From positions 806,001 to 870,000 of the forward strand of contig OZ237759.1 of the NCBI GenBank assembly GCA_965178125.1: a stretch of DNA of 64,000 nucleotides, in the 5' to 3' direction. The translations under genes and the position numbers were made by a program. Source of the stretch: Bilabrum cf. latius. Its lineage: Eukaryota. Shown here one piece after another: positions 5,511 to 34,356 of this stretch. The notes beneath the pieces were generated by a model. The model did not search any database, was not told the origin of the DNA, and saw only the letters and a list, made by a program, of their open reading frames with translations. Every line of letters starts with the position of its first letter. The stretch's first letter is position 1.

Positions 5511-5611
5511 TGTTATCCGCCAAAATGTGTGTAGTTTTTATATAAGTAAACTCTATTTCTACTATATAGTAGAAATAGAGTTATCATAACTCCACATTTT
5601 GGCGGATAACA
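5511..5611. repeat. Left terminal imperfect hairpin (101 bp)
   Basis: 19-bp outer arms TGTTATCCGCCAAAATGTG / CACATTTTGGCGGATAACA, 34-bp perfect central palindrome (5549-5582), unequal 19-nt and 10-nt mismatched segments. Confidence 0.95.
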
Positions 5612-7000
5612 TAAGAGGTCAATATTAACCACTTCACAACATCTTAAGCCGTAGTCCTTCATAATGTCCTTCACTTGAACATAATAATTTAATAGCTATT
5701 TATTCATATATCTACCTAATTTAATACCTTCGCGCCGTTAATGTCTATCTGTTAGACCTTTACTTTACTTAATCTGTTGAGTGAATCCCTAGCCTAAGTC
5801 TTAGGATATGCCCGCCCGAAATTGCGGAAATATATAGTCATTTAAGAATATATGTTCGCAATTCTGGGCGCGTAGGTGTATTGAGTTTTATATTATGATT
5901 TGGTTTTAAGTATCAATTGACATTTACCACTTTAGAAAATAACTAAATAAATACTTAAAGAGATTGACAGAAGTATTAAAGTCTTTTTAATACTTCCAAT
6001 GAAAAATTTAAATTAATAAATAAAACTAAACTAATATATCAACTTAATTTATCTCTTTTTTTATTACTTGTCAATCTATACTTAAATAATTGAATATTTA
6101 AATATAACTAGAAGGAGATATTAATCACTTTATAAAGTCTTTTATATGTCATCTCTTCAAAACTTCAAATATAAGGGTATCCCCTTAAAAATACATTCTT
6201 TTATCTATCGCCCGAAATTGCGGTAATATTATAGCTATTCAAGATATATTTCTGCAATTCTGGGCGCGTAGGTGTATTGATTTTTATTTTTCATAATTCT
6301 TTAAATATGTTAAAGTCCTTTGTTTGAGTATATGATATAAAGGAATACAAAGCGGGATAACTTAAAAATGATAAATGTTTTGACGATGACTTTAAAATGA
6401 CTCAATGAACTGGTTTATGTCAAGTGTATTACTTTGAAATGATTAATCACTAGATTAAATGGAAAATATAGGATAATAAAATATGGTATAGTATAATACT
6501 AGCGCCCGAAATTGCGGTAATATATTAGGATATTAAGATATATTGTCGCAATTCTGGGCGCGTAGGTGTATTGAGTTTTATATTTTGTTAATTTTGACAT
6601 AGTTATCTTATAGAGGTGTAATTTTGTAATAAAGATATTTCTAGTATGTGCTATATTAAATGTCCAGAAATGACGGCCCGAAATTGCGGAAATATATAAG
6701 TATTCTAGAAATTATGTCCGCAATTCTGGGCGCTTAGGTGTCTTCAATAATTAATAATCAACTGCTTCTTTATTTTGATTAATTTTTTTGACTTACCGTT
6801 CATTTTATTGACCACTTAACGGGATATCACAAAAAGACTTAACCACTTGACGAGATATTTTAAAATAACTAATAATAAATATGACCGCCCCAAATTGCGG
6901 AAATATATAAGTATCAAGAAAATTATGTTTGCAATTCTGGGCGCGTAGGTGTCTTCAATAATTAATAATCAACTACTTCTTTATTTTGATTAATTTTTTT

Positions 7001-7279
7001 GACTTACCGTTCATTTTATTGACCACTTAACGGGATATCACAAAAAGACTTAACCACTTGACGAGATATTTTAAAATAACTAATAATAAATATGACTTAC
7101 CGTTCATTTTATTGACCACTTAACGGGATATCACAAAAAGACTTAACCACTTGACGAGATATTTTAAAATAACTAATAATAAATATGACTTACCGTTCAT
7201 TTTATTGACCACTTAACGGGATATCACAAAAAGACTTAACCACTTGACGAGATATTTTAAAATAACTAATAATAAATAT
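7001..7279 (+). repeat. Three tandem 93-bp repeats in the left TIR
   Basis: GACTTACCGTTCATTTT...AATAAATAT starts at 7001, 7094, 7187; a further copy at 6790; one copy in the right TIR. Confidence 0.9.
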
Positions 7280-7393
7280 GACCGCCCCAAATTGTATCTC
7301 CAGATATGACCGCCCCAAATTGCGGAAATATATAAGTATCAAGAAAATTATGTTTGCAATTCTGGGCGCTCACCCGTATTCAATTTTACATAT

Positions 7394-7603
7394 TCACTAA
7401 CTCATACCACTTGAAGTGGTCCATTTGATCTTGTGTTCATATTTAGAATGTCCTTTAACTTGTATCAATGTATTGAGTACTTCTTCTAACTAGTCCTTAA
7501 CAAATGATTTTGTCTTATGATATGTCTTGGTAGTCTTCACCTATTTAATAACTAATTTACAAGTCTTACCGACAATATACTAAGTTAATAAATCTTGTAT
7601 CAT
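7394..7603 (-). CDS. Virophage small hypothetical protein (69 aa)
   Basis: ATG 7603 to TGA 7394 with four in-frame TAG; back to back with the 7612 gene. Confidence 0.45.
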
Positions 7604-7611
7604 AATATATT

Positions 7612-8019
7612 ATGTATGAGATAATTATTGATGGATTCAAATATAAACCCTCTACTCGTAGAAATAAGAAATATGATGTATTCAAAAATGGTAAGTATAT
7701 CACTAGCTTTGGTGATGCACGATATGCTCAATACTTTGATTTGATTGGTAAGTATGGAGATAATAACCATATTGACCCTAAAAGACGACGCCTATACTAC
7801 CGAAGACACGGGAAGACTACCGATACTAATAGCTCAAAATATCACAGTCATAAAATCTTATGGGGAAGTGATAATGCTATTAAGGACTACTTAACAAAAC
7901 TAGCCAATGGAGTATTAGATGTAAAAAGGTATGTTAAAGGGGATACTTTGGAAAAATGGTTAGATGACTATAGGTCTAAAGTGGACGCAAGACTGAAACA
8001 ATTAAAAATATTAAATTAA
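7612..8019 (+). CDS. Virophage basic protein, possibly DUF5754-like
   Basis: KKYDV...SFGDARYAQY...HIDPKRRRLYYRRH...SHKILW pattern recalled from giant-virus and virophage proteins; family name unverified. Confidence 0.7.
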   Translation: MYEIIIDGFKYKPSTRRNKKYDVFKNGKYITSFGDARYAQYFDLIGKYGDNNHIDPKRRRLYYRRHGKTTDTNSSKYHSHKILWGSDNAIKDYLTKLANGVLDVKRYVKGDTLEKWLDDYRSKVDARLKQLKILN

Positions 8020-8176
8020 AAAGTCAATACGCCTACGCGCCCAGAATTGCGAAAATATATCTTGAATAGCTATAATATTACCGCAATTTCGGGCGCCCAA
8101 ATTTGAATCGAGCTTAAGACATCTCGTTTAATTAGACTTAAAAATAATATATTATTATAGTATATACTATATTATA

Positions 8177-8710
8177 ATGTGCTATAAATGTCGTAACTTC
8201 ATAATCAATAAGCTAAAGATTAATGACTGGAATAAGATAGCCCCTCTATTAATACCAGCTGGAGAGACTAGAGAAGAAGACGGAAAGTGTATCTGTGACC
8301 ATCCAATAAAAAAAATCAACTTCGTTAAGTATCCCCCAACTGGTGATATATTTAAATTAGGTTCTGAATGTATTAATAATACTTTCGACTCTGATCATAA
8401 AGTGTATATGGCTTGTATGTATAAGACTTGTGATGTATGCTCTTGTGTTGTTAAAAAGTCAAGTTATAGCAGTCATATTAAGTCCATCAAACACGAAATG
8501 AATGAAGACATATTAAAAGAGAAAAAGAGATGCACTGATTGCGAAGACTGGATTGAAAAGACCTCTTGGAAAAAGACTTGTCTTAGTTGCTATTACAAAA
8601 AGAAAGGATACAAATAGTGTAAAAGGTGCGAGAGGTATCTATTAAAACCTGATACCACTTATTGGTATTGCTTTACATGCTACTCTAAAAAGAAGAAATA
8701 TAAGAAGTAA
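8177..8710 (+). CDS. Virophage multi-zinc-finger protein (177 aa)
   Basis: Several CxxC pairs and a C2H2-like HIKSIKH; TAG at 8615-8617 read through gives another CKRC...CFTC unit parallel to the preceding CTDC...CLSC; TAA at 8710. Confidence 0.8.
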
Positions 8711-8767: not shown

Positions 8768-9433
8768 TTAAGTGGATGTCTTAACCTTAGACTTCTATTC
8801 TTTTAATTGCTTTCTTTTAAGTCTTCGTCTTTCGTTTATCTTGTCTTTATTCTTGTGATAGTAGTCAAGAGAATATTTTTTTAGTTTTTCTTTATTATTT
8901 TCTTCGTACTTTTTATGATTTTCTTTTATTTTGTCTCTATTTTTGTCTCTATACTACTGCATCATTTCTTTATTATTCGAATACTTTAGATTTTGACGTT
9001 CATTTATAATATGTCTATTCTTTTCGGCGTATAGTCTTTGCTTAGCGACTATATTGCCTCTATTATCATCATAGTATTTTCTCCATCTTTTCTATCTCTA
9101 TTCTTTTGTCTCATTGTAATACTCTTTTCTAGTTCGTCCTGCAATACACTTATTGACACATTTATATTTCCTGATATACCCTCCTTCAATCTTGCCTAAC
9201 TCTTCTCTATCTTTGCACGGACATTTTTCTACTAATTCAATTTTTACATCACCTAAGTCATAAATAATGAATGAAGTAATAAAAGGATATTCTCCTTTCT
9301 TATAATTCTTATAGTCTTTTGTGTGTCCTCCCTTTCTCTAGCTCAATGTCTAACAAGTAGAGCCATAATATACTTTTGAAGGATCATTAAGTGAGTAAAG
9401 TCTGTATATCTTTGCATTTGAGAAATTTACCAT
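8768..9433 (-). CDS. GIY-YIG endonuclease (221 aa; absent from ORF track)
   Basis: MVNFSNAKIYRLYS...VYIGSTC[TAG]TLS[TAG]RKGGH...IELVEKCPC...IEGGYIR...CVNK, followed by a charged helical tail; TAA stop. Confidence 0.9.
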
Positions 9434-9531: not shown

Positions 9532-11187
9532 ATGTCAAACAAAGGCAAGACATACACTAGAGGTAAAATATCATACACGTACGGTGATAAGCCAACAAAA
9601 AATCAAAAAGATAGTGATGATTTAGACGCCACTATTAAGGGACTACTTGATAAAGGGTTTGAAGAGGTGCCAACCACCAAAGCTAGTATTAAAAAGCTAC
9701 CTTTATACTCTTATATATCGTACATCTCAAATATCAAGGGAAAGCCACTATTTAGAAGAGGTGGGGTAATTAACTCAATATAGAAGGATGGAGACTATTT
9801 TACCTTGTATAACCTAATAAATAAAGTTCATTTTAGTGTTCAATAGTCTAACCTTGTTCGCCTTTTTTATAAGATGACTAAAGCTTAGACAAAAAAACTT
9901 AATAAACCAACCGGTAAATTAATAGAAATAGAAGACAAACCAAAGAAAGACGAATTTAAATATAAGCCAATATTAAAGAAACTATATTATGAAGAAGGTA
10001 ATGTAGTCAGTCGTGATGCGTTATATGACCTAGCTAGACAAAAAGATAGGAGAATAAAACGAAGACAAGTTGAAAAGTGGTTAAATGGCCAAATGCTACA
10101 CTAGCTCACGAAAAAACGACCTAAACAGTCAGCAGTAAGTTCTTTTGTACCTACTAAGCCTTTCTCAATTTACGCATTGGACTTAATAGACATGCAAAAG
10201 TATTCAGACACTAATGACGGCTATAATTGGATATTAAATATAATGGATATATTCACAAAATACCTATGGAGTATTTCATTAAAAGATAAGACATTAGTTA
10301 ATATAATTCGTGAGATGAAGAAACTATTTAAGAAACCTAATTGGAGAAAACCGACTGTTATGTTAAGTGATAATGAGTTTAATAAAGAGGCATATATTAA
10401 ATTTATGAATGACAATGACATAAAACCACTATTCACCATCGCAGGAAATCCATAGTCTAATGGTGCAGTTGAAAGACTTAATAGGACTATAAAAGAATAG
10501 ATTAGAAAAGACTTTGCTATTAAGAATGACAGTGATGGTGTTTGGCATACGTCATTATAGAGACTAGTAAGAGCTTATAATAAGAGAAAACACAACACTA
10601 TAGGAATGTCTCCAATAGAAGCAATGAAACCTGAAAATTTAGAAGTAGTTAGATCTAGAATTGAAAATAAGAAATTATCAAATAATTTTGACGGGAATGA
10701 TAAAGATCTTAATGTAGGGGATAGAGTTAGAGTATTACTTGAGAAGAACAAGTTTAAAGGGAATTTATTCAATTGGTCTAGAGAAGTCTTCACTGTTAGA
10801 TAGAAGACCAAACCAAGAAATCCTAAGTAGAGGATTAAATATAAAGTAATGGACAAAGAGGGAGAACCTCTTACTGGATTCTTTAATGCTTCACAGTTAT
10901 AGAAAATAGACAATGTAGAACACGAAGATAAGGTAAATGATGACATAGACAAGGAAAGTGAAGAGCCTGAAATTGATAATGTTGAAGGTTTAGAAGTAGA
11001 ACCAGACACAATAGAGAAGTTTTTAGATAAAAGACAAAATAAAGATAGACTTATTGAATACTTAGTCAAATATAAGGGATATTCTAATAAGTTTAATGAA
11101 TGGATTACCCGTAAGAAATTAGAATAGGATTATGGGAAAGACCAAATACGACCACTTGCGAAAGACTATTCTGATAGATAGAGATAA
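9532..11187 (+). CDS. Retroviral-type (rve) integrase with C-terminal chromodomain (551 aa)
   Basis: DLIDM...DIFTKY...SDNEF...P[TAG]SNGAVERLNRTIK DDE core, YNKRKHNTIGMSP, VGDRVRV, chromodomain IEKFLDKR...EYLVKYKGY...NEW; a single frame once TAG is sense. Confidence 0.95.
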
Positions 11188-11417: not shown

Positions 11418-12098
11418 ATGGAATTGTTAAATATAACAAGATACAAAAATAAAGACCTTCTAAAAAGAGTAGTCAAGTTAAGTGAAAAGTACAAGTGGTC
11501 TCGTGATGACTTAAAAATGTTATGGATTAACAAGCATTATTCAAGTTTATAGGGTGAAATAGATGATGAAGGGGACGAGATAGCAACTATAAATTTAGTG
11601 AGACAACCGTCTAAAATAGAACCTATCTAGTTAAAACCTCCACAATTAGAACGACAATAGGCTATATTGGAAGATGTTGAATTAGATAGCGAAGACATAG
11701 AGGATAATAAAGAGGAAGACTATTTGAATGATACATATAGTGATACAAGTAGTGAAGTAGTGAGTGAAGTCATTGAAGAGAAACCAATTAAAGAGAAACC
11801 AAAACCAAAAATCAATATTAGTGATCTTACAGTGAGTGATAAACCTGAATATGTTTATTGTGTAGAGATTAATGATACAAAGGTATATTTTAACAAAAAG
11901 AATACTTAGACTTATCCTGATGCTTTAAGAAGAGGTAAATCACACGCTGATAAAATGAGAAAGCGAGTATTAGGACATCTTCATTTTGATGAGACCGATA
12001 TGTATGACAGCAACTTATGGTATGCTAAAGTGTGCTGGGGTGATAGTGATAAAATTCATGATAACTTTACAAAGTTTAAAAATATCTTATTAAAATGA
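11418..12098 (+). CDS. Virophage hypothetical protein (226 aa), acidic linker, C-terminus loosely similar to the 7612 gene
   Basis: ATG 11418 to TGA 12098 with four TAG; KVYFNK...HADKMRKR...YAKVCWGDSD resembles ...HIDPKRRR...HSHKILWGSD. Confidence 0.7.
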
Positions 12099-12117: not shown

Positions 12118-12624
12118 ATGAAAAACACAATTTGGAAGTTTTTAAATGAATACTTTGATGTCTTTAGTTTAATACTTAAAATACGAGACGAAAACCCTAG
12201 TGATGTCATAAGTACTATAATAGCAATGTATGAAGAGAGTGAAATAGAAGATCCAAAAGAGATCCATAAACATATGAGTGAAATTCGTCATAACTTGGAA
12301 CTTAGATTTAAAACAAAGTATGTTGAAGTATTAAGCACAGATCACGATGACAAAGCAGAAAGTTATCTCCATCTTAATAATATATTATGTAATATTGAAG
12401 GAGAGCAATATGTGGAGGATAGCAAAATCAAGATGTCCGAGAAAAAACAAGTATTTATAAAGACTTACGGTGATATGGATAAAATCAACGAGACTGTCCA
12501 AGAGATGGAACAAGAAGACGAAAAGACTAAAACAGGAGTAGAAAAAGAAATAGATCAAAAGTTAAGTCTATTATGTAATACTTCTAAACAACCAGACAAT
12601 ATTTGTCTAGATTATAAATTGTAA
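12118..12624 (+). CDS. Virophage hypothetical protein (168 aa)
   Basis: Clean ORF, TAA stop, preceded by the CCACTATATATATAGG leader motif. Confidence 0.7.
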   Translation: MKNTIWKFLNEYFDVFSLILKIRDENPSDVISTIIAMYEESEIEDPKEIHKHMSEIRHNLELRFKTKYVEVLSTDHDDKAESYLHLNNILCNIEGEQYVEDSKIKMSEKKQVFIKTYGDMDKINETVQEMEQEDEKTKTGVEKEIDQKLSLLCNTSKQPDNICLDYKL

Positions 12625-12751: not shown

Positions 12752-13388
12752 TTATATGGAATAGCCAAGGTCTAGAGTCGAACGAAGCTTATCGTGAAGC
12801 TATTCGTAAGTATTATAAATGTAATAGCTAGAAGGGTTCAACTCTTTGATATAAGAGTTACGGTCTTCTAACATAGACTTCTATTTATCTACTTTCTAAT
12901 TCTTTAAAGTCTTCTAGAATAGTGAATTAGATGGAAGACATACAACTATACTTTCTTTTTTAAATAACTCATTAGCTAGACTTAACTCTTTAGTAAAGAA
13001 TATTACTCTCTTCTCGCTACCTTCATTCAACCAGTTATCTTTTACCCATTGAAGGGCTTCTTTACTGGCTTTTCTATTAAGTATATTATAATTACCCCAA
13101 TCACTTTTTAACTTACATTCGTCTAGTTTCATAAGTAATTCGGGCTCCTAGACATATACTCCTAGAGTACTATCTAAATCAACAAGTAAACAGTCTTTAG
13201 AACTAGACCGTAATATTTGACAAGCGGTAGACTTACCACTACCTTCAGGCACACAGATACATATTTTTTTACGTTTATGTAAAGGTTTATCCCATAACCA
13301 CTACCAACAAGACATACCACCAGAGTATGCTAGAGGTAGTAAGACACTTAAACCTCCTACAACGACACTGCTTGAACTGATTCCATCC
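12752..13388 (-). pseudogene. Virophage P-loop NTPase/kinase-like gene (212 aa) with start codon split by the Ngaro insertion
   Basis: ICICVPEGSGKST and LLVDLD; joining 17877 to 13388 rebuilds AAAATG GAT GGA (MDG...) in frame to TAA at 12752. Confidence 0.75.
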
Positions 13389-16300
13389 TAATGCTAACGC
13401 CGAATGGGGTTCGGGGTTGATGTGGCGATGCGTTCGAGACTCGAACACAGGCTCCGGTCTACCAACGCGAGGTTGCAACCGCCAGTGCGACCAGCAGCTT
13501 GCGAGGCATTCCCTCGTCTCCTTCCTTAGGGAAGGGGGCGGGGCAGCGCGGCAGTGGCCGTTCCGGCTCATGCCGTTGTTTTGTTTAGTATTTATGTTCG
13601 GTTTGGTGCTCACACGGGTAGTGCTTAACGCCGTGTCAACTATCGCGCGTGTCCATGTGGGTCCGTTCGGCCTACATCGTGCATCCATCCTCGGCCTACT
13701 TGGCGCTCCAGTGGATCCGAACCAATATTTACTTCGATGTGATCCATCTTTCTCGGCACATCGATGGGACTTCGGTCCGTTGGGCTCGGCTGCTGCTTGC
13801 GCCACGGTCTCCCGGGTGTGTGCTCGCCGATGGCATTTTCGCGCGATCTCTGCGTCCCTCCCTTTCGTACTTGTTCCTACGCACGGCCATGCATGTAGAA
13901 ACATATTCAAATGGTTCGATCTTACGGTTTTCCGACGACCCAGCCTTTCCGTTGGCGAGGCGCGCTCCGCTTTTCCGGTCGCACCTCGAAAGCAACCACT
14001 TTCGGCCAGATCAGCCATCGTACCAGGATACAGCACGATTTGCACCTATCGAGTGACTGATCATTTGAATTGTGCAGGGTGGGCACGTAGTCAGCTTGGA
14101 CTCCATCGTCCTCTGGCTGCCGACGACAGCAGGCTCGGTGAGCCTTCGTCATCGTCCAGACAACCCTGCAGCTCGCACCAGGCGTGCGTGCAGGAGGTCG
14201 AAGCGAGCAGCGCGGTGTGGCGCAGCTCGTAGACGGAGGCCGGCCTGGAGCCTGGTCGGTTGACGCAGCATCAGTGGTGGGCTGGTGCTGTGTCTTGCGC
14301 GGGTGCCGGAGCTTGGCCACGGTGGCCTGCTGCTCCCTGCGCCCCACGCGCAGTTCCTCCCGCTCCGGCGGATGAGTCAGCAGTGGCACGTTGCCACCGG
14401 CTGACGACGACAGCAGGCTCGGTGAGCCTTCGTCATCGTCCAGAAAACCCTGCAGCTCGCACCAGGCGTGCGTGCAGGAGGTCGAAGCGAGCAGCGCGGT
14501 GTGGCGCAGCTCGTAGACGGAGGCCGGCCTGGAGCCTGGTCGGTTGACGCAGCATCAGTGGTGGGCTGGTGCTGTGTCTTTGCGCGGGTGCCGGAGCTTG
14601 GCCACGATGGCCTGCTGCTCCCTGCGCCCCACGCGCAGTTCCTCCCGCTCCGGCGGATGAGTCAGCAGTGGCACGTTGCCACCGGCTGACGACGACAGCA
14701 GGCTCGGTGAGCCTTCGTCATCGTCCAGAAAACCCTGCAGCTCGCACCAGGCGTGCGTGCAGGAGGTCGAAGCGAGCAGCGCGGTGTGGCGCAGCTCGTA
14801 GTCGGAGGCCGGCCTGGAGCCTGGTCGGTTGCCGCAGCATCAGTGGTGGGCTGGTGCTGTGTCTTGCGCGGGTGCCGGAGCCTGGCCACGATGGCCTGCT
14901 GCTCCCTGCGCCCACGCGCAGTTCCTCCCGCTCCGGCGGATGAGTCAGCAGTGGCACGTTGCCACCGGCTGACGACGACAGCAGGCTCGGTGAGCCTTCG
15001 TCATCGTCCAGAAAACCCTGCAGCTCGCACCAGGCGTGCGTGCAGGAGGTCGAAGCGAGCAGCGCGGTGTGGCGCAGCTCGTAGACGGAGGCCGGCCTGG
15101 AGCCTGGTCGGTTGACGCAGCATCAGTGGTGGGCTGGTGCTGTGTCTTGCGCGGGTGCCGGAGCTTGGCCACGATGGCCTGCTGCTCCCTGTGCCCCACG
15201 CGCAGTTCCTCCCGCTCCGGCGGATGAGTCAGCAGTGGCGCGTTGCCACCGGCTGACGACGACAGCAGGCTCGGTGAGCCTTCGTCATCGTCCAGAAAAC
15301 CCTGCAGCTCGCACCAGGCGTGCGTGCAGGAGGTCGAAGCGAGCAGCGCGGTGTGGCGCAGCTCGTAGACGGAGGCCGGCCTGGAGCCTGGTCGGTTGCC
15401 GCAGCATCAGTGGTGGGCTGGTGCTGTGTCTTGCGCGGGTGCCGGAGCTGGGCCACGATGGCCTGCTGCTCCCTGCGCCCCACGCGCAGTTCCTCCCGCT
15501 CCGGCGGATGAGTCAGCAGTGGCACGTTGCCACCGGCTGACGACGACAGCAGGCTCGATGAGCCTTCGTCATCGTCCAGAAAACCCTGCAGCTCGCACCA
15601 GGCGTGCGTGCAGGAGGTCGAAGCGAGCAGCGCGGTGTGGCGCAGCTCGTAGACGGAGGCCGGCCTGGAGCCTGGTCGGTTGCCGCAGCATCAGTGGTGG
15701 GCTGGTGCTGTGTCTTGCGCGGGTGCCGGAGCCTGGCCACGATGGCCTGCTGCTCCCTGCGCCCCACGCGCAGTTCTCCCGCTCCGGCGGATGAGTCAGC
15801 AGGGGCACGTTGCCACCGACTGACGACGACAGCAGGCTCGGTGAGCCTTCGTCATCGTCCAGAAAACCCTGCAGCTCGCACCAGGCGTGCGTGCAGGAGG
15901 TCGAAGCGAGCAGCGCGGTGTGGCGCAGCTCGTAGACGGAGGCCGGCCTGGAGCCTGGTCGGTTGACGCAGCATCAGTGGTGGGCTGGTGCTGTGTCTTT
16001 GCGCGGGTGCCGGAGCTTGGCCACGATGGCCTGCTGCTCCCTGCGCCCCACGCGCAGTTCCTCCCGCTCCGGCGGATGAGTCAGCAGTGGCACGTTGCCA
16101 CCGGCTGACGACGACAGCAGGCTCGGTGAGCCTTCGTCATCGTCCAGAAAACCCTGCAGCTCGCACCAGGCGTGCGTGCAGGAGGTTGAAGCGAGCAGCG
16201 CGGTGTGGCGCAGCTCGTAGACGGAGGCCGGCCTGGAGCCTGGTCGGTTGACGCAGCATCAGTGGTGGGCTGGTGCTGTGTCTTTGCGCGGGTGCCGGAG

Positions 16301-23614: not shown

Positions 23615-24163
23615 ATGGATATAACCACTGCATTAAGTCCTGAAGAGGTACAAAGACTATACTTTACATTTACAAAGTAGCATATACCAGTTATAATGTA
23701 TGAAGAAATAAGTGATACTAATAACATCAGACAATTTCTAGATGAAAATCCTTTATTTGTCCTTTATTATCCTAACTTAGTAGAAGGAGCAACAATGAGC
23801 GGTCATTATACTGCGGTCATATTTAATAAATCAAAGAATACTCTTTATTTTTGGGATAGTTATGGTCAATTACCTGATACTCATATTCCAGTCGTAGGAG
23901 GAGTCATAGACCCATAGAAGCTATATGATAGAAGTAGTCTTCTAATAGATCACGTATTAGATGCTGGTATTAATGTTGACTATTCAAATCAAAAGAATCA
24001 ATTAATATCAAATAACTCTGCCACATGCGGTCGGTGGAGTGTGCTCAGACTTCTCTTTCATAATTTAACGAATGATTAGTTTAATAGTCAATTAAAGAAG
24101 GCTTTTAAAAAGTATGGAGGAGGACTAGATAATGATGAACTTATTACTTTGATAATTAGTTAA
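23615..24163 (+). CDS. Adenain-like cysteine maturation protease (182 aa)
   Basis: SGHYTAV, YFWDSYG, Q...SATCGRW catalytic His/Asp/Gln/Cys order. Confidence 0.93.
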
Positions 24164-24523
24164 TATGACATATACCATAAATTTTTAGATATTGAAAATT
24201 GATATCTATAAGGTGGCCATATTAAAAAGACTAAAATATAAAAATGAATACGGGTACGCGCCCAGAATTGCGGAAATATATCTTAATATCCTAATATATT
24301 ATCGCAATTTGGGGCGCTGGTATTATACTATATCTTAAGATACTAAATTTTTAAAATTTCGGAATATTGGATTTTTTCAATGAGTCAAATAATTAATAAA
24401 AACTTTTTTAAAAAGTCATTACGGGTAAGCGCCCAGAATTGCGGAAATATATCTTAAATAGCTATAATATTACCGCAATTTGGGGCATTAGACAAGACTT
24501 ATTTTCTTGATAAATGTTATAGA

Positions 24524-25492: not shown

Positions 25493-27379
25493 ATGTCTGA
25501 TATGGATAATGTACCTGTAGCAGCACAAAGCAAAGTCGTAGATGACGTCTCAGAACTACCAGTAACTCAAATAGCTGACGAAAAACTCAACTTTGTGGGT
25601 GATAGTCAAGCTATTACTCTAGGAACTACCCTTGGATACTCTTCCAAGTTTCAAAATCACTACGAACCAGATGGTGGTAACTCTAGCGCAACTAATGCAT
25701 TTAGAAGTAATTATACTTTCGTAGTGCCATCAAATCAAGGAATGACTGACAGTAATCCCCGTCTAAGAGTTTCATTTGACGTATACATCTATGATAGTTA
25801 GAACAATGGAGCAGTAGCTCAAACTGATATCGTCAATAAGGTAGCCCCTTCTACATTTATGGTAAATTCAATGATCACAAGTTCCACAGTTAAAATGGGA
25901 GACTTATCTCGTAGTTCATCACCTTATCAATTAGTCAATTTAATAGCTAGAAGTCTTGACCGTGCCACTCTAGCACAAATAAGTCCTGTCTTTTAGGCTG
26001 ATAACACTTGGGAATTTAATACTGCCGCAAATGGTCTTGCTAAGTCTGTCCTTCAATGGGGTGTAAATGATGATAGTATTATGGAAGCTCGCGGTCCTGG
26101 TAAGAATTACCGCGCAACACTTGAAAAAGTGGATGCTAATACTCCAATACCTAATAATAATGTAACACCAACTCAAGACTATGTCAAATTACATATTGAA
26201 ATCTCTGAAGCACTTCTTGCACGTCCTTTCCAATATATGATGGGTGGTAATGCTAGACCTTTTGTTGATCATCCACAATTAAATGTTAATTTACAAATGA
26301 GAAATAACTTAATTGATAAGATGTTTAATACTTCAAGTGATTGGAATGGAGACTATGCTTTTGCTTTATCCGATTGCTAGATCCATTTTGATGTCTTTAC
26401 TTATAATACTCATCTTAACTTCTTGAAGAAAGTACCTAAACAAATATTCTACAACTCTGTTGACTTTGAACTACATGAAGAGCCTAAACTTGATAATCCT
26501 ATCACTACTAAAGGTGTCCATACTTTTAATAATTATCAACTTTAGACTTGCCCTTCTTGGTTTGCTGTGTGCTTAGTTGATTCTCAATATGGAGAAGCTA
26601 GTGGTACACCTCATAGAACACTTGCCATTAACAATATTAAAGTACAACTTAGGTCTTAGGGTTCTATTTTAGGAGAACTTACACAAGACGATATCTTTAG
26701 ACTTAGTGAAAGAAATGGATCAAATAGTGAGTATGCTTCTTTTACTAACTTAGATGTAACTGTAGGAGGTGCTTCTAAAGTATACGGATCTAATGGCTGG
26801 CTCTTATTTAGACTTAGTGATTTAAATACTCCTGAAACTATTCAAAGCAACAGTGCTGACCCTATTAGTATTCGTGTTCAAGTAGCCTATGACGAACCCC
26901 CAACCGCTGCTATGTCTCAAGGATATAAAGCTCAATTATTCTGTGCCTATGACAAGATTATCGTGAATACTAGAGGTGCCGCTATTGAATGGCGTGAAGA
27001 TAGTGCTTCTGTTGACCCTGAGAAAGTGGCTAAACCTTCTAATTATACATTTTCTAATATGAACTACTCTAAGAACGTATTAGGTGGAAGACGTCGTAAA
27101 GTGATGCAATTCTTTAAGAGAGCCTTTAACAAAGCTAAAGACTTAGGACGTAAAGTGGTAGACTTTGGAAAGAAAGCTAAAGCTAAATTTGATAAAGTGA
27201 AACCAGCTCTTCGTAAAGCAAGGCAAGCAGTAAGTGAATACTTACCCGATGAAGTGAATGACTTAGCTGAACGTGTTGGAGCAGGTCTTTTAACTAGTGG
27301 TGGAAGTCTTTTGACCAGTGGAGGTAAGAAATTAACTAAGGCTCAACTTATGAAACTTAGAAAGTAGCTCAATATGTGA
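25493..27379 (+). CDS. Virophage major capsid protein (628 aa)
   Basis: Single frame with TAG sense; ISEALLARPF, NNYQL[TAG]TCP, LAINNIKVQL...SILGELTQDDIFRLSERNG resemble virophage MCP motifs; basic C-terminal extension after VLGG. Confidence 0.92.
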
Positions 27380-27566
27380 GTCGTAAATTATTAATTAATA
27401 TTTAAAAGTTATAAATATTGACTAAATTTAAAAACTCAATACGGGTACGAGCCCAGAATTGCGAAAATATATCTTGAATAGCTATAATATTACCGCAATT
27501 TGGGGCGGTCATACCTTAAGACTAGTTTAAATATTACGCCAAAAAATATCCACTATATATATAGTT

Positions 27567-27989
27567 ATGGCAGCAGTATCACCGTGTGAAGACTTACTTT
27601 ATATGGAGTATTCATTCTTATTCTTACCACATAGAGAAGACCCAACACTTAAATCTCAAAAGGTTTACTTAGATGATGAACTTGAAGGAGATCCTGAAGA
27701 CATTGTAATAGATAAAGATTAGATATAGGTAAATAATAGAGGTCATATAAAGACATATGTAAGTGAAGGAGGCTTTACAAAGTTAAAGGTAGGATAGATA
27801 ATTGAAGAGATGGAGCAAGAGGTGCGTAATTAGAATGGTATTGATTATGATTGTATTTTTTATCATAAAGTTGAACACGACACCAGCACAGATATTTATA
27901 AAGTAGTATGGGGGTGGTATCCAGCAGACTTTCCAACAAATGGATGCGACCCTGCTATCTTGTATAAGAAACCCCCTAATATGGATTAA
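27567..27989 (+). CDS. Virophage cassette ORF 1, hypothetical (140 aa)
   Basis: ATG directly after the shared leader CGCCAAAAAATATCCACTATATATATAGT; four TAG; TAA stop. Confidence 0.7.
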
Positions 27990-28476: not shown

Positions 28477-28929
28477 ATGTCAGATAATTTAGACTTCCAT
28501 TTAATTAAACAAGTTGATGATATATGTTTCACTGGTGTTGAATTCTATTAGGGATATCGAATAACTCAAGGTGAACAGCTTAAACAACTTAATTACTTAT
28601 TCGTAGATAACAAAAAGGATATTGATAAGTTTGTATCTATTTCATTTGTAAAAGAAGCAGATAAGGATGAGTTTGAGCTATTACTGGTTAATGAAAATGG
28701 AAAATTAGAAGACGACACAGATATATTTAAAACAGAGAGAGACCTTATTAAGTACTTGAAAGAAATAGATTTAAACAAAAAAGACTATTCAAATGATGAT
28801 GTTATGTTGTCAACATTTCCAATTATAATGATGAGCATACGAGATCTAGTAATCAATAGCAATATTGGTTCAATTGAGAGTATCAAAAAAGGTGATACAG
28901 ATCAATTTGACCACTTGAAAGATAACTAA
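28477..28929 (+). CDS. Virophage cassette ORF 2, hypothetical (150 aa)
   Basis: Same palindrome and leader as cassettes 1 and 3; one TAG; TAA stop. Confidence 0.7.
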
Positions 28930-29066: not shown

Positions 29067-29417
29067 ATGTCAGATAAAGAAGATATCAAAATTGAACTAT
29101 CTCAAAATTTTATAGATGAATGTCTTGTTAAAGGTGTAGGTGTCGATGATGTAGTCAGTAGTATAGGTAAAAGTATTGAGAATCACTTTGATAAATATGT
29201 ATGGATGAAACCAAAAGACAAAGGTGATGGTTATCGTTAGAATGTCTTTAGTTTTAAATTCGACAATATTATCAAGAAACTCGAAAGTACATTGGAACAG
29301 TTAGAATATGAAGAGCAAGTGAAACACGTCTAGGAGCTGATGTATCGTGTTGAAAGAAGTGAATGTGAAAGGAAGAAGAGAGAAGAAAAAATTAAAAAGA
29401 CAAAAAGAGACCACTAA
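29067..29417 (+). CDS. Virophage cassette ORF 3, hypothetical (116 aa)
   Basis: Same palindrome and leader; two TAG; TAA stop. Confidence 0.7.
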
Positions 29418-29479: not shown

Positions 29480-32278
29480 TTAATTTTGTTGTTCTAGTGG
29501 ATCATTATCCTCATCAACAAATAAAGCGGGGTCTAAGTCAACCTCTATCTCTTCATCGGGTAATTGAACCTCTTCATCATCAACAAATATATCTACTTCA
29601 CGAGTCTTTTTCTTGTTAGACCAGATATATTCCATCTCATCAATAATATCCTAATTAAATTCTACATCATAGTTAATTTTCTTTTTCTTACAAGTCATAA
29701 ATATGTCTTTCCCAAACATTGATTTATATACTTTAAGTATTTCGTAATAAAGACCTTTATCAGTGGATAAGTCAACTTTACTTCTTCTTTGGCAGTCATA
29801 CACTGTCCTATATTCATCTGTTAAGTCTTGATCTAATACTTTCTTTTTGATATTATAATCAAGATTAGTTCTTTTAAGACCTAAAGTATCAATCATCTTA
29901 TTAAGTAAGACTAATTTTCTAGAACTAGACTTAGCATTGATAATATCAAACTCGCCTTTATTAATTGCTTTCACAAGTAAGTGCTTATCATCTTGTCTAA
30001 AGAATTTATTGAAATTAAATAAATTAGATAACTTACCTTTATTAATAAAGTACTCTTTGTATTTGTCAATATCACCTTCATCTAAGTCTAAATATTTATT
30101 AATCTTCTTGACATTAAGACAATTAATATCAAAATTTTCAAGTTGTTTTTCTTTAATGGTATCTTTGATTTCTTTATCCTTACATCTGGTGATCTTAACA
30201 GATAAATCATAAGACACGTCATAACCGGTATCAATTAACTACTTGATCATATGTAATTTAGGGTTTGTCTTATAACAATCTACCTTGTAAAGATAATTAC
30301 GATATAGTTTCTTGAATATGATTTTAACTTTGCTCATTTCTTCTTCTACTTTGTCTTCTACTTCTACCTCGTTGAAGTCGGGATATGTATCACTGACAAA
30401 TTTAACTAATTCTTCGTAGTCTTTTAAAGAGGTAGCCATAAAAGATTTAACTTGTGAAAGACTTTCATATGTGCTAGATCGTCCTTTCTAGTAATCAAAA
30501 AATATAGTGATATGTGATGGGTTTCTACATCTGTTAAGCTATTGAACCATTTGGGGAGGTGTGATAGTATGACCTTTGAAATAACCAAAGACTGGTCTAG
30601 TCATAGTGCTATCTATCCCGTAAATGACTTTAGGTGAGAAGATAATGATATCAAACAAATCCATATCATAGTCTTTGTCTTCGCTTTCTGCTGTAAGTAT
30701 TAAGATTTTATTTAATTTCTTATCTTTCTCGTTATCTATAATTTTAAGACTAATTAACTCATTGATTATATCAGCTTTTGTCTTACTATCACTAGCAAGC
30801 ATAAACTTCTTGTGTTTCATTAACTCATCTCTAAAAGTCTGTTCGTCATTAACAAATACAGTTTTGGTGCCCTTGAACCTGTTTCTGTCATTCCTAATAT
30901 ATTGATAATCTAATTTTAATAATTCTAAGAAATATAGAGCATCTTGAGATAAGTCAGCATCTGCTACTATGAACTACTTACAAGTGGTAAGAGCACGAAT
31001 AAGAGTAATGAAACTCATTGGTCGCCTACCATATAAAGTCGTAGAACTTAAACAGTGTTCTAAGATACTATTAAACTCATCTAAAAAGACAATATAATCC
31101 TTAAAGTTATAATTGCTAAGACTAACAATACTTTCAGGAGTAATAACAATACTATCACCCTATTTGTATTTATGGTCTTGATAGAATTTAGTTGATTTTG
31201 GAAGACTACGCATCTATTGCTTACCTAATAAAATACGACTAACAACTGATAAAAAGCTGTCATCTACTCTATTAAATAAATCATTAGCAGCAGTTGTCTT
31301 TCCAGAACCAGCCCCCGACTTAACGGCATAGTTGATACCTTTCTTAAAGAATTTAATATAACGACCTTTGTCGTCAGCAGTCAAATATCTACGGTCAATC
31401 TTCTAATTGACTTTCTTGACTACTTTATTCTTGAATATCTTGTATCGATAATATAGGCTAAGTCGTTTCTTTTCACTATCTAACTAGTTAAAGAACCATT
31501 CAACACATTGAAAAGTGGAATTTTGTAATAATCGAGTAAAAATTATCTTGTTCTTAGTCGACTAATAGCTTTCTACGTCTTGTTTGCTCCATTCATCAAA
31601 TATATCATATACCTTATTACCATCTACTGGATTTAAGTATTTAGCGATATAACTTGTAGCTCTACAAACTAGATGCCAGTTATATGAATTAGAATAATAC
31701 TCTTTACCTAATTGATATAAGTATTGTTTGTATTCTTCGGGTTTAATCATATAACGGTAGTCTTCAGCTGTAAGTTGTGGTGAATAGATATTTTGTAGTA
31801 TGAACATCTTGACGTCAGTTGGTATTCTTTTCACGGATGTCTTTTGTATTAGTTCGTATTTCTTACCGTTGATAGAGCTAGGAGGACACATGATAAAGCT
31901 ATCATTTGTGATCACATCTATATGTTCTTTTCTATTTACTGACCTCTTACTAAACTCTTCTTCATACTTAAAATACAAATGATATCCATTGGGAGACTTG
32001 ACAGTGTAAGTATTCATCTCTTGAATAAACTTATCAACACTACCATATTCCGCAATAAACTTACCATTTTGAAATTCAGTTTTATTTTTCTCTTTTTCAC
32101 AATCTAAGTCAAGGACAAAGAAACCTGCACGTCTTCCAGTAAGTAATCCAACATTAAGATTTGACTTTCTGGTGATAAGTTTAGTAGATTCCAAATTCTA
32201 CCAAGACTTAATAAGTGGTTGTTTAGAGTTGTGAGCTATTGAGAAATAAACAGGGTTAGATATGTGTTCGGTCGTCAT
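29480..32278 (-). CDS. Primase-polymerase + PriCT-like + UL9/origin-binding-type SF2 helicase fusion (932 aa)
   Basis: KQPLIKSW, NVGLLTG, FVLDLD, TVKSPNGYHLYF (prim-pol); FDEWSK; KSGAGSGKTT, VSRILL, VFLDEFNS, ADADL, FSPKVIYGID, Q[TAG]LNRCR; four track ORFs share one frame. Confidence 0.88.
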
Positions 32279-32308
32279 TCTAGTATATACTATACTAAAG
32301 ATAATTTT

Positions 32309-32521
32309 TTAAGTCATTTTCTAGACGCACTATTTTGGCTTAAAGGATTGAGATGGATTTTCGCGCACAACTAGAGTATTTTTAAATTTTTCAATTTCTG
32401 CTGGGGATTTCCCGATTAGTAAATAACTTATAGTCTCTTGAAACTCTATTGGTAAGTCTTGTAATTGATGTATTGGTTTATTGATAACTTGATTATTTGA
32501 TTTGGTATCTATTAAATCCAT
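32309..32521 (-). CDS. Virophage small hypothetical protein (70 aa)
   Basis: Track ORF extended through two TAG to TAA 32309. Confidence 0.5.
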
Positions 32522-32553
32522 TATTAATAATACTATAATAATAGAATATATTT

Positions 32554-32763
32554 TTAAGTCTTATTTAATCCTTCTGTATCTGGTTCATCCTTAACCTGTT
32601 TTCTCTTCTAATAGTACCCCTTCCATTTCTCTTGATTCTTTTGGTAATATTTCTATTTAGCTTTTTTAATAGCTTCTTTCTTTTTGGTCTCCTATTCCTT
32701 GAGTCTTTGATAATCTTCCATAATGTCTTGAACCTATTTTAATACATCTTTAATATCTGGCAT
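32554..32763 (-). CDS. Virophage small basic coiled-coil protein (69 aa)
   Basis: MPDIKDVLK[TAG]VQD...KKAK[TAG]KYYQKNQEKWKGYY; TAA stop. Confidence 0.55.
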
Positions 32764-32823
32764 TACTATAGTAATATACTAGATAAATCTTTAAGTTTTT
32801 AAAACTAGAAAATGACTTAAAAT

Positions 32824-34356
32824 AAGTGGTATGAGTTAGTGAATATGTAAAATTGAATACGGGTGAGCGCCCAGAATTGCAAACATAATTTTCTTGATAC
32901 TTATATATTTCCGCAATTTGGGGCGGTCATATCTGGAGATACAATTTGGGGCGGTCATATCTGGAGATACAATTTGGGGCGGTCATATTTATTATTAGTT
33001 ATTTTAAAATATCTCGTCAAGTGGTTAAGTCTTTTTGTGATATCCCGTTAAGTGGTCAATAAAATGAACGGTAAGTCAAAAAAATTAATCAAAATAAAGA
33101 AGTAGTTGATTATTAATTATTGAAGACACCTAAGCGCCCAGAATTGCGGACATAATTTCTAGAATACTTATATATTTCCGCAATTTCGGGCCGTCATTTC
33201 TGGACATTTAATATAGCACATACTAGAAATATCTTTATTACAAAATTACACCTCTATAAGATAACTATGTCAAAATTAACAAAATATAAAACTCAATACA
33301 CCTACGCGCCCAGAATTGCGACAATATATCTTAATATCCTAATATATTACCGCAATTTCGGGCGCTAGTATTATACTATACCATATTTAATTATCCTATA
33401 TTTTCCATTTAATCTAGTGATTAATCATTTCAAAGTAATACACTTGACATAAACCAGTTCATTGAGTCATTTTAAAGTCATCGTCAAAACATTTATCATT
33501 TTTAAGTTATCCCGCTTTGTATTCCTTTATATCATATACTCAAACAAAGGACTTTAACATATTTAAAGAATTATGAAAAATAAAAATCAATACACCTACG
33601 CGCCCAGAATTGCAGAAATATATCTTGAATAGCTATAATATTACCGCAATTTCGGGCGATAGATAAAAGAATGTATTTTTAAGGGGATACCCTTATATTT
33701 GAAGTTTTGAAGAGATGACATATAAAAGACTTTATAAAGTGATTAATATCTCCTTCTAGTTATATTTAAATATTCAATTATTTAAGTATAGATTGACAAG
33801 TAATAAAAAAAGAGATAAATTAAGTTGATATATTAGTTTAGTTTTATTTATTAATTTAAATTTTTCATTGGAAGTATTAAAAAGACTTTAATACTTCTGT
33901 CAATCTCTTTAAGTATTTATTTAGTTATTTTCTAAAGTGGTAAATGTCAATTGATACTTAAAACCAAATCATAATATAAAACTCAATACACCTACGCGCC
34001 CAGAATTGCGAACATATATTCTTAAATGACTATATATTTCCGCAATTTCGGGCGGGCATATCCTAAGACTTAGGCTAGGGATTCACTCAACAGATTAAGT
34101 AAAGTAAAGGTCTAACAGATAGACATTAACGGCGCGAAGGTATTAAATTAGGTAGATATATGAATAAATAGCTATTAAATTATTATGTTCAAGTGAAGGA
34201 CATTATGAAGGACTACGGCTTAAGATGTTGTGAAGTGGTTAATATTGACCTCTTATGTTATCCGCCAAAATGTGTGTAGTTTTTATATAAGTAAACTCTA
34301 TTTCTACTATATAGTAGAAATAGAGTTATCATAACTCCACATTTTGGCGGATAACA
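32824..34356 (-). repeat. Right terminal inverted repeat (about 1.53 kb)
   Basis: Reverse complement of the left TIR, with fewer 93-bp units and an extra short GGTCATATCTGGAGATACAATTTGGGGC unit. Confidence 0.92.
34256..34356. repeat. Right terminal hairpin (101 bp), identical in direct orientation to 5511-5611
   Basis: Base-for-base identity with 5511-5611 on the plus strand, including the asymmetric segments. Confidence 0.95.

Follow-up and report, generated by a model that had tools for sequence, protein, structure and literature searches.

An endogenous mavirus-like virophage that appears to use the TAG-glutamine code of its eukaryotic host

The integrated element and its genes

The window analysed here is a stretch of 64,000 nucleotides from Bilabrum cf. 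latius (contig OZ237759.1 of assembly GCA_965178125.1, positions 806,001 to 870,000). Within it lies a block of AT-rich DNA, with a GC content of 0.28-0.35 (about 30%) against 0.49-0.68 in the flanks. A sequence-only reading had placed the ends of this block at 5511 and 34356, and they are exactly bounded by a 5-bp duplication, GACCT, on both outer sides. The structural features, in window coordinates, are:

5511-34356: whole integrated virophage, 28,846 bp with a foreign insert of ~4.5 kb counted in
5506-5510: target-site duplication GACCT, left copy, abutting 5511
34357-34361: target-site duplication GACCT, right copy, abutting 34356
5593-6897: left arm of the terminal inverted repeat (TIR), 1305 nt, 100% complementary to 32970-34274
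32970-34274: right TIR arm, pairing with 5593-6897
5511-5611: terminal 101-nt unit; second copy at 34256-34356, 100% identical and in direct, not inverted, orientation
13381-17876: non-coding insert, GC 0.61-0.67, carrying split direct repeats of the Ngaro type

The terminal unit has 19-nt inverted ends of its own and a 34-nt palindrome inside, and beyond the left TIR arm further degenerate repeat copies extend as far as ~7412. In the insert, the split repeats are A1 (13381-13584), B1 (17369-17514), A2 (17507-17710) and B2 (17731-17876), with ten tandem units of 284 nt at 14011-16867; its left edge is uncertain and may begin near 13316. RT, RNase H and YR genes are absent from the insert, and a Pfam search with four of its ORFs returned no family. 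This 4.5-kb segment is retroelement-like and arrived later than the endogenous, mavirus-like virophage, which is ~24 kb without it.

With TAG taken as a sense codon, 21 ATG-started ORFs of 116-932 aa are found across the AT-rich DNA:

7612-8019, plus: 135 aa, no TAG; DUF5754-like (PF19058, E 5.9e-6, slightly below cut-off), five IMG/VR homologues
8177-8710, plus: 177 aa, cysteine-rich, 1 TAG; no Pfam match
8768-9433, minus: 221 aa, 6 TAG; two tblastn matches in IMG/VR locus L009
9532-11187, plus: integrase with rve domain and C-terminal chromodomain (Pfam), 551 aa, 12 TAG
11418-12098, plus: ORF call, 226 aa, 4 TAG
12118-12624, plus: ORF call, 168 aa, no TAG
12752-13315, minus: P-loop ORF, 187 aa, 6 TAG; AAA_18 at a sub-threshold E of 0.0035; start adjoins the GC-rich insert
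17922-18644, minus: ORF call, 240 aa, 1 TAG
18888-20330, minus: ORF call, 480 aa, charged, 5 TAG
20370-20813, minus: 147 aa, lysine-rich, 1 TAG; syntenic homologue in IMG/VR locus L019
20848-21666, plus: ORF call, 272 aa, 5 TAG
21861-22382, minus: ORF call, 173 aa, 3 TAG
22528-23595, plus: putative A32/FtsK-type packaging ATPase, 355 aa, 6 TAG; L019 homologue E 1e-20, atlas lead to Pox_A32 clusters 0.98
23615-24163, plus: putative cysteine protease, 182 aa, 3 TAG; Peptidase_C57 at a sub-threshold E of 0.0043
24524-25450, plus: penton (minor capsid protein), 308 aa, 5 TAG; mavirus 6g41 E 7.2e-13, Sputnik 3j26_N E 4.7e-5
25493-27379, plus: major capsid protein (MCP), 628 aa, 6 TAG; mavirus MCP 6g45 E 1.2e-15, MCP_V20_C 30.4 bits (cut-off 27)
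27567-27989, plus: 140 aa, 4 TAG; codon 54 (27726-27728), TAG in the window, is CAA in sister copies
28477-28929, plus: ORF call, 150 aa, 1 TAG
29067-29417, plus: ORF call, 116 aa, 2 TAG
29480-32278, minus: Prim-Pol primase-helicase fusion, 932 aa, 11 TAG; Prim-Pol E 8.9e-14

The proposal that this element is a virophage is borne out by the MCP and penton, both of which match the solved mavirus capsid proteins. The integrase (32.7 bits for rve with a cut-off of 32.6, and 30.3 for Chromo with a cut-off of 25.1), the Prim-Pol domain, the perfect 1305-nt TIRs and the 5-bp target-site duplication also speak for this identity. From these matches we read the element as a mavirus-like virophage that has entered a eukaryotic chromosome of high GC content. 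Other labels fared less well. The 221-aa ORF had been called a GIY-YIG protein, for which we found no support in Pfam (no match at E<=1) or in the PDB (none at E<=10). For the putative ATPase and protease, synteny favours the earlier labels, homologues of the protease adjoining the ATPase in L019 and lying near the MCP in L016, but the profile matches are sub-threshold. The nearest database clusters of the MCP besides its own reach at most 32% identity, and scans of IMG/VR and of JGI metagenomes returned no close relative. That standard-code pipelines would miss such a lineage is plausible, but one large protein collection already contains these proteins at full length, translated with TAG as sense. 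As had been stated for the element, no suppressor tRNA is present: ARAGORN found no tRNA anywhere in the window, and no Rfam family was detected in it.

TAG as a glutamine codon

The expectation that about 20 ORFs would be intact with TAG as glutamine agrees with the 21 ORFs obtained. Of these, 19 carry in-frame TAG, among them the penton, MCP and helicase genes that had been singled out. The four individual sites quoted earlier are likewise TAG in frame: 10453-10455 in the integrase (AGNPxSNGAV, where x is TAG), 9350-9352 and 9338-9340 on the minus strand (YGSTCxTLSxRKGGH), and 22873-22875 in the ATPase (HYLSGxAGAGK), whose Walker A motif reads GQAGAGKS with the Q encoded by TAG. The 5783 codons of the 21 ORFs include 82 in-frame TAG, 135 CAA and 9 CAG, and 17 of the ORFs stop at TAA and 4 at TGA but none at TAG, an absence that is weak by itself (p = 0.10). 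TAA outnumbers each of TAG and TGA about two to one out of frame; if the in-frame stop-type codons, 83 in all, kept to a 2:1:1 ratio of TAA:TAG:TGA, 82 of them being TAG would have p = 3e-48. Reading TAG as sense gives longest stop-to-stop frames of 942, 638, 569 and 484 codons. Reading TAA as sense gives 381 and 314, and reading TGA as sense gives 235 and 211, the same as the standard code. The lengthening of frames is specific to TAG.

The claim that TAG stands where homologues have glutamine is supported at the integrase site, where GNPxSNG aligns with GNPQSQ of the solved integrase 4pa1 and places x opposite Q, and at two columns of the primase-helicase. In a tblastn comparison of the latter with 51 IMG/VR loci, translated in the standard code, Q is the residue in 43 (aa 355), 46 (aa 580) and 17 (aa 435) of 48 sequences, and over all TAG columns (463 cells) it is the commonest residue at 27%, followed by K at 15.6%. 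Among 24 distant database homologues the same positions have Q in 21, 22 and 11 sequences, respectively, and Q fills 26% of the cells in TAG columns versus 9.9% in the columns where the query has CAA- or CAG-encoded Q. At the six TAG columns of the MCP, which are variable and polar, K and N lead and Q makes up 5.4% of cells versus a background of 3.8%. In relatives that are 84-88% identical, Q is found in 25 of 34 cells at TAG sites (73.5%) and in 79 of 102 at CAA/CAG sites (77.5%). This comparison is not fully independent, as gene calling in that collection evidently took TAG for Q and the Q residues of these relatives may themselves be TAG-derived. Finally, the TAG at 27726-27728 is CAA in a near-identical sister copy. 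On these alignments, TAG is best interpreted as glutamine in the virophage genes. The IMG/VR relatives show no in-frame TAG across 60 primase-helicase HSPs, and in their loci TAG terminates 41 of 395 long ORFs; these counts speak for a derived recoding.

Could TAG be read, but not purely as glutamine, either as some other residue or as a leaky, ambiguous stop-sense codon? Several TAG columns are rich in K, D/N or I/L among distant homologues, six of the eleven in the primase-helicase being led by such residues (aa 27, 239, 292, 597, 680 and 876), and the host's TAG sites discussed below lie opposite non-Q residues of solved homologues. We nevertheless consider this improbable, given the two near-invariant Q columns, the primacy of Q over all TAG columns, the alternation of TAG and CAA between sister copies, conservation of TAG sites close to that of ordinary Q sites, and the failure of TAG to terminate any of the 21 virophage ORFs or of 8 host ORFs.

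A different possibility is a dead provirus in which C-to-T deamination after insertion turned CAG codons into TAG, so that the long ORFs would be illusory. CAG is indeed scarce and TAG plentiful, and the copy in the window has a genuine in-frame TAA besides the 4.5-kb insert. Such damage should, however, also have converted CAA to TAA and CGA to TGA, whereas the ORFs retain 135 CAA with a single TAA and no TGA (TAG:CAG 82:9 versus TAA:CAA 1:135, Fisher p = 4e-50). The sequence-only reading had itself named a pattern of CAG in other copies or free relatives, with TAA and TGA gained at similar rates, as what would speak for damage; TAA and TGA were not gained at such rates (1 and 0 against 82 TAG), and at one site where the window has TAG the sister has CAA. 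Its view that the element is not decayed agrees with the sister copies. Among the 40 of 157 differences listed, these copies keep the TAGs, and of 29 changes to a single codon 25 are synonymous versus 20% expected (p = 3e-14). The TIRs, too, are identical along all 1305 nt, and intact host genes likewise have TAG. Hence the provirus explanation is very improbable, more so than a reading of TAG as other than glutamine. The window copy itself is slightly damaged. The TAA, at 23143-23145, interrupts its ATPase gene, and near-identical copies have that gene intact, the site being ATA (Ile) in contigs of all four public runs compared and Ile in the database protein P0096. With a broken ATPase and the insert, this copy may itself be inactive.

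The same code in the host's genes

Host genes on both flanks bear on whose code this is:

51266-53095, plus: MAP kinase gene (E 1e-106 to plant MPK6), two in-frame TAG within the kinase domain, TGA end
37364-38899, plus: FG-GAP repeat gene, six in-frame TAG, two of them opposite Q of the adjoining paralogue at 34366-36663
60569-62296, plus: TrmO-domain gene, TAG within the conserved domain

The kinase domain of the MAP kinase is intact but for its two TAGs, at residues 65 and 149, and the FG-GAP paralogues align as SHxKI/SHQKI and LCSxG/LCSQG. Opposite the TAG sites of the MAP kinase and TrmO genes, solved homologues have M/T, E/D and R/R/V, with no Q. Altogether, 8 host ORFs contain 30 TAG, 48 CAA and 123 CAG; six of them stop at TGA and two at TAA. 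In-frame TAG within conserved domains of host genes indicates that the code is the host's own, as had been supposed.

These genes weigh against the alternative that the recoding is a property of the virus system, with a helper-borne suppressor reading TAG during infection of a standard-code host. Code-15 phages do behave in this way in standard-code bacteria, as described in the available parts of PMC9523058 and bioRxiv 10.1101/2021.08.26.457843, and the virophage is without a tRNA of its own. Yet the MAP kinase, TrmO and FG-GAP genes of both flanks stay open only with TAG as sense, and in the virophage TAG is spread over every gene class, the integrase included, and is not restricted to late ones. 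We rate this alternative as low as the dead provirus. Lower still is U-to-C editing that would turn TAG into CAG in the mRNAs of host and virophage alike. It is equally consistent with the Q-for-TAG pattern, and the window itself gives it no support; it demands site-specific editing at no fewer than 82 virophage sites, including sites that differ between copies, as well as at host sites, and general knowledge gives it a low prior.

We therefore favour, with a probability of about 0.9, an endogenous mavirus-like virophage whose genes are in a TAG = Gln code common to the host, with only TAA and TGA as stops. On this reading, the rve integrase would have inserted the virophage into a GC-rich eukaryotic chromosome, generating the 5-bp duplication, and the virophage would be translated by the apparatus of the host, which presumably has a tRNA-Gln with the anticodon CUA and a release factor blind to UAG, so that the virophage would need no suppressor. 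As a C-to-T change from CAG to TAG is synonymous here, mutation pressure in this AT-rich element would have nearly replaced CAG by TAG.

Related systems and implications

Code-15 (TAG = Gln) phages carry suppressor tRNAs. These phages, such as the crAss-like and Lak phages, resemble the virophage in having genomes rich in in-frame TAG, but their code differs from that of the host and is tied to late genes in the available parts of PMC9523058 and the bioRxiv preprint, whereas here the code is the host's, there is no tRNA and all gene classes contain TAG. Mavirus and the endogenous mavirus-like elements (EMALEs) of Cafeteria burkhardae, as far as the available text of PMC8547959 goes, share with the present element a related MCP and penton, an rve integrase, TIRs, low GC within a high-GC host, in some cases a primase/helicase replication gene, and GC-rich Ngaro-type A1-...-B1A2B2 insertions in intergenic virophage DNA. 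The MCP described here is, however, distant from that of mavirus (E 1.2e-15); ordinary gene calling, with no code change, is described there for the Cafeteria elements, unlike the TAG found here in 19 of 21 genes; and the insert lacks RT, RNase H and YR genes.

Use of the host's code by an endogenous virus has a precedent. Endogenous viral elements of Streblomastix strix use the TAA/TAG = Gln code 6 of their host, which the accessible portion of Bellas et al. 2023 (PMC10120064) takes as a sign of long association. Like the present element, these are integrated viruses of the polinton/virophage supergroup in a protist host's non-standard nuclear code, but their MCPs fall in a 'Metamonada group' with Trichomonas rather than being of mavirus type, and both TAA and TAG are reassigned, whereas here only TAG is, with TAA as the main terminator (17 of 21). 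In the literature surveyed on viral elements in a host's alternative code, no virophage and no TAG-only case was found. The codon table inferred for host and virophage, with UAG as Gln and UAA/UGA as stops, equals that of the anaerobic fornicate Iotanema spirale (PMC5304391) and the ciliates Hartmannula sinica and Trochilia petrani (PMC11687900), going by the available text of both papers, which mentions no virus; the present host has DNA of 50-68% GC with long, intron-poor genes.

Nearly all virophage proteins would be cut off under the standard code, which would confine the lineage to hosts with the same code. No giant-virus sequence is present in the window. Some giant-virus genomes from metagenomes annotate better under alternative codes, and replication in stop-reassigned hosts, the type of helper that the virophage implies, is suggested in the available part of PMC13524828; those are metagenomic bins without hosts, and that paper gives standard-code hosts as the source of every confirmed giant-virus isolate. 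Since virophage and host share the TAG-Gln code, the giant virus that mobilises the virophage probably replicates under it too, and it is reasonable to expect that this helper must avoid TAG stops.

Gene content and integration of the virophage

The AT-rich element shows a GC content of 0.28-0.35, against 0.49-0.68 in the surrounding host DNA. Its 628-aa ORF matches the mavirus major capsid protein (MCP; 6g45) with an E-value of 1.2e-15 over residues 68-533, and scores 30.4 bits against the Pfam model MCP_V20_C (cut-off 27), identifying it as a virophage-type double jelly-roll MCP. A 308-aa ORF that recovers the mavirus penton (6g41, E 7.2e-13) and Sputnik 3j26_N (E 4.7e-5) ends 43 nt upstream of the MCP start, so that penton and MCP genes are neighbors. 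The element further codes for an integrase with rve and chromodomains and for a 932-aa protein in which a Prim-Pol primase is fused to a helicase. Two other assignments are putative. The first is a packaging ATPase of the A32/FtsK-HerA type, which has Walker A and B motifs and no PDB match; its best Pfam P-loop match, AAA_10, is sub-threshold (25.4 bits against 27.5), and its feature-based Atlas placement with Pox_A32 clusters (0.98, 21 of 30 hits) serves as a lead only. The second is a cysteine protease with a sub-threshold match to Peptidase_C57 (E 0.0043, 16.3 bits against a cut-off of 24.5) and likewise no PDB match; its homologs lie beside the ATPase in L019 and within the MCP-bearing L016, both of these being metagenomic loci from IMG/VR. 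The sequence-only reading had also named a GIY-YIG gene, a label that gains no support here, as ORF 8768-9433 retrieves no Pfam family at E<=1 and no PDB match at E<=10. What is left is its KIYRLYS...VYYGST...R...H pattern, a resemblance to GIY-YIG at the level of a motif only.

The main structural features are as follows:

5511-34356: the integrated element; GACCT precedes 5511 and follows 34356 as a 5-bp target-site duplication (TSD)
5593-6897 and 32970-34274: perfect terminal inverted repeats (TIRs) of 1305 nt, 100% identical
5511-5611 and 34256-34356: outermost 101-nt units, identical in direct orientation, the adjoining 1.3 kb being inverted
13381-17876 (approximate): GC-rich block that interrupts the element and abuts the start of the P-loop ORF 12752-13315
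5002-5589 and 34366-36663: the two sides of the insertion at a host FG-GAP repeat gene, the insertion point lying 5 bp upstream of the gene's first ATG

The ends proposed earlier are therefore exact to the nucleotide. Mavirus TSDs are 5-6 bp in size, and the rve integrase, TIRs and short TSD together place the element with the EMALE-like group. These observations show that an element of virophage type was integrated here and left a TSD. When the element and one TSD copy are removed, a single reading frame is open across the junction, and hence the insertion may interrupt the 5' coding part of the FG-GAP gene. Each 101-nt terminal unit is bounded by inverted ends of 19 nt and encloses a 34-nt palindrome, and because the two units share one orientation, one terminus is flipped relative to a simple TIR. 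The arrangement is flip/flop-like, with a terminus that can form a hairpin, and may point to hairpin ends or to an inversion of the terminus during replication.

Without the GC-rich block the element measures about 24 kb. The block displays split direct repeats in the order A1-...-B1A2B2, with A1 (13381-13584) 99% identical to A2 (17507-17710) and B1 (17369-17514) 100% identical to B2 (17731-17876), an arrangement given as the signature of Ngaro retroelements in the available text of PMC8547959. Its interior consists of ten 284-nt tandem units. Four of its ORFs match no Pfam family, and the insert carries no recognizable genes for reverse transcriptase, RNase H or tyrosine recombinase. The insert is at best a non-autonomous Ngaro derivative, and its position in intergenic virophage DNA parallels the nesting of Ngaro elements in EMALEs of Cafeteria, as described in the same source.

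A 54-nt hairpin motif (CCCRRAATTGC, a 32-nt AT-rich loop, and GCAATTYYGGG) occurs in 22 copies from 5815 to 34052, for example at 8040-8093, 24261-24314 and 27452-27505. All copies are intergenic or inside the TIRs, with none in host DNA, and the segment 27440-27520 folds as RNA at -23.9 kcal/mol (z = -3.2). The motif may mark transcript ends or be associated with promoters, as a signal that the element and the helper virus would have in common. Separately, CCACTATATATATAG directly precedes the ATGs at 9532, 12118, 27567, 28477 and 29067 (as CTACTATATATATAG at 28477), which suggests one promoter class for these five ORFs; the MCP and primase-helicase genes instead share ATCTTTAGT upstream.

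TAG as a sense codon in the element and its host

Under the standard code the longest ORF in the AT-rich block has 235 codons. Reading TAG as sense yields frames of 942, 638, 569 and 484 codons, as against at most 381 codons with TAA and at most 235 with TGA as sense. With TAG so read, we counted codons over 21 ATG-started ORFs (5783 codons), in agreement with the earlier estimate of about 20 intact ORFs. In-frame TAG occurs 82 times in 19 of the 21, which bears out the claim that nearly all genes of the element contain it; the four sites quoted from the integrase, the ATPase and, twice, the ORF labeled GIY-YIG are all in frame. The remaining glutamine codons are CAA (135) and CAG (9). The same ORFs terminate in TAA (17) or TGA (4) and never in TAG. 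Outside the reading frame, TAA outnumbers TAG and TGA each by about two to one, and against this 2:1:1 null the observation that 82 of 83 in-frame stop-type codons are TAG has p = 3e-48. The share of TAG among glutamine codons differs between genes at 7612-32278 (MCP 19%, a 480-aa ORF 20%, the ATPase and the P-loop ORF 75% each); a comparison of capsid genes (11/44) with the others (71/182) gives no significant difference (p = 0.115).

An alternative explanation for these codons is post-insertion C-to-T damage of CAG. Such damage predicts conversion of CAA to TAA alongside that of CAG to TAG, and this is not observed: the TAG:CAG ratio is 82:9 but the TAA:CAA ratio is 1:135 (Fisher p = 4e-50), so that the damage model is rejected. 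A second line of evidence comes from near-identical sister copies of the element in contigs of public sequencing runs (for instance, 4 differences in 3785 nt). The ORF differences considered here are drawn from 40 of the 157 single-letter differences, and affect 31 codons: 25 changes are synonymous, 4 are non-synonymous, one is TAG/CAA and one TAA/ATA. Among these same 40 of 157 differences, 25 of 29 single changes are synonymous where 20% would be expected (p = 3e-14). The coding sequence of the element is under purifying selection, and both the TAA:CAA ratio and the synonymous excess between copies uphold the earlier statement that it is not decaying.

The only other in-frame stop, a TAA within the ATPase gene (23143-23145), is ATA in all four runs; P0096, a full-length 355-aa ATPase from the database, has isoleucine at this position. 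This TA/AT swap may be private to the copy in the window or an assembly error.

The host genes flanking the element show the same usage. The MAP kinase gene (51266..53095; E 1e-106 to plant MPK6) carries TAG twice in its kinase domain (residues 65 and 149), and the TrmO-domain gene contains TAG inside the domain. In the tandem FG-GAP paralogs (34366-36663 and 37364..38899), one reads SHxKI and LCSxG, where x is TAG, and the other SHQKI (in five repeats) and LCSQG. Across eight host ORFs, taken as stop-to-stop frames that may include non-coding parts, TAG occurs 30, CAA 48 and CAG 123 times, and the ORFs end in TGA (6) or TAA (2), never in TAG. The code thus belongs to the host, which itself uses TAG as sense. 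As a separate observation, the TrmO-domain gene (60569-62296) carries a long in-frame (GK)n repeat at 61900-62050.

Glutamine as the meaning of TAG

The primase-helicase gene, with 11 TAG codons, allows a comparison of TAG columns with the residues of homologs. In 24 distant database homologs (23-33% identity), glutamine stands at TAG columns 355, 580 and 435 in 21/24, 22/24 and 11/24 sequences, and over the TAG columns as a whole it fills 26% of cells, compared with 9.9% at the columns where the query itself has CAA or CAG. An independent tblastn search against 51 IMG/VR loci, read in the standard code, gave glutamine in 43/48, 46/48 and 17/48 homologs at the same three columns; over all TAG columns no residue was more frequent than glutamine (27% of 463 cells), with lysine next (15.6%). 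In relatives of 84-88% identity, glutamine fills 25/34 cells at TAG sites against 79/102 at CAA/CAG sites, though these residues may themselves be derived from TAG, since gene calling in the source collection evidently reads TAG as glutamine. In the integrase, GNPxSNG (x being TAG) aligns with GNPQSQ of a solved integrase. The earlier proposal to compare TAG, CAA and CAG across copies proved informative at codon 27726-27728, where, among the 40 of 157 differences covered, TAG in the window alternates with CAA in sister contigs of four public runs.

Other columns are less telling: 6 of the 11 primase-helicase TAG columns are dominated by K, D/N or I/L in the distant homologs, and the six TAG columns of the MCP are variable polar positions in 31 distant homologs, with an uninformative 5.4% glutamine against a 3.8% background. 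This is what would be expected of non-conserved positions, and no other single residue is favored. TAG in the element is therefore a sense codon corresponding to glutamine, and in both respects the element follows the pattern of NCBI table 15, with TAA and TGA as stops.

Distribution of the lineage and implications of its code

This lineage stands apart. A search of 1.84 billion representative proteins yielded 60 representative relatives of the MCP at E<=1e-3, the nearest outside its own cluster being 32% identical, and the 84-88% relatives are confined to short contigs of a single assembly collection. No close relative turned up among 56 pattern matches to the MCP family in IMG/VR or among 171 in JGI metagenomes; the primase-helicase family retrieved only four distant JGI loci (21-24% identity), and a tblastn search of the phage GenBank collection with the MCP gave no match. 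Public runs containing the element (X1-X6) are filed under two organism labels in two studies, with copies roughly 99.5-99.9% identical over pieces of 0.8-3.8 kb. The element is hence either common to close relatives or recently spread; no RNA run containing it was found among the public runs. The nearest syntenic relative found, L019 (5461-15188), uses the standard code, bears an rve-chromo integrase, and has in common with the element the order integrase ... lysine-rich ORF ... ATPase, protease; L016 bears a Sputnik-type MCP. The IMG/VR relatives average 30% GC; their 60 primase-helicase HSPs are free of in-frame TAG, and TAG terminates 41 of the 395 long ORFs in these loci. On this comparison, the recoding of the virophage is a derived state.

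TAG in the virophage would be decoded by a putative host tRNA-Gln(CUA) together with an altered eRF1. The claim that the element lacks a suppressor tRNA agrees with our scan, in which no tRNA or Rfam family was detected in the 64-kb window. AT mutation pressure probably drove the synonymous change from CAG to TAG; TAG makes up 36% of glutamine codons in the element and about 15% of those in the host ORFs. Genes of the element would be inexpressible in a standard-code cell, and its helper giant virus would be expected to replicate under the same TAG code. Since virophages depend on a giant virus for their replication, the element would imply an undiscovered giant virus that lives under a reassigned stop codon, as no isolate is known to do. 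No giant-virus sequence is present in the window.

The principle is already known for the wider polinton/virophage supergroup, as endogenous viral elements of Streblomastix strix use the TAA/TAG = Gln table of their host (Bellas et al. 2023, in the accessible text of PMC10120064). Nuclear codes with UAG alone as glutamine are described for Iotanema spirale (PMC5304391) and for two phyllopharyngean ciliates (PMC11687900), at least in the available portions of these reports. Neither a virophage in which a codon is reassigned nor a GC-rich eukaryote that reads UAG alone as glutamine came to light in the literature searched, which lay mostly outside subscription journals and supplements.

The site-level observations are real, and the core interpretation of a virophage recoded to its host's TAG = Gln code is supported: the element is a mavirus-type virophage whose TAG-only recoding agrees with that of its host, a TAG = Gln organism apparently not described before. 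More tentatively, at a probability of roughly 0.4, we propose that no virophage lineage written in a UAG = Gln-only code had been found before this one, that it sits in a GC-rich eukaryote for whose lineage a nuclear code with UAG as glutamine and UAA/UGA as stops was hitherto undescribed, and that a giant virus with a reassigned stop codon awaits discovery.

The host adds a UAG-only reassignment, a rare kind of code change, in a GC-rich genome. The shift from CAG to TAG under AT pressure would illustrate the spread of a reassigned codon after it has become free to use, with the code thereafter acting as a host-range barrier; standard-code gene callers would fragment such elements. In the available text of PMC13524828, giant-virus bins annotate better under alternative codes and all confirmed isolates come from standard-code hosts, so that alternative codes in these viruses otherwise rest on metagenomic bins, whereas here a host genome and public runs make the question testable. 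A virophage that makes sense only with TAG as glutamine is an indirect but concrete sign of a giant virus infecting a host in which a stop codon has been reassigned, and the finding is of direct relevance to the question of whether giant viruses have such hosts.
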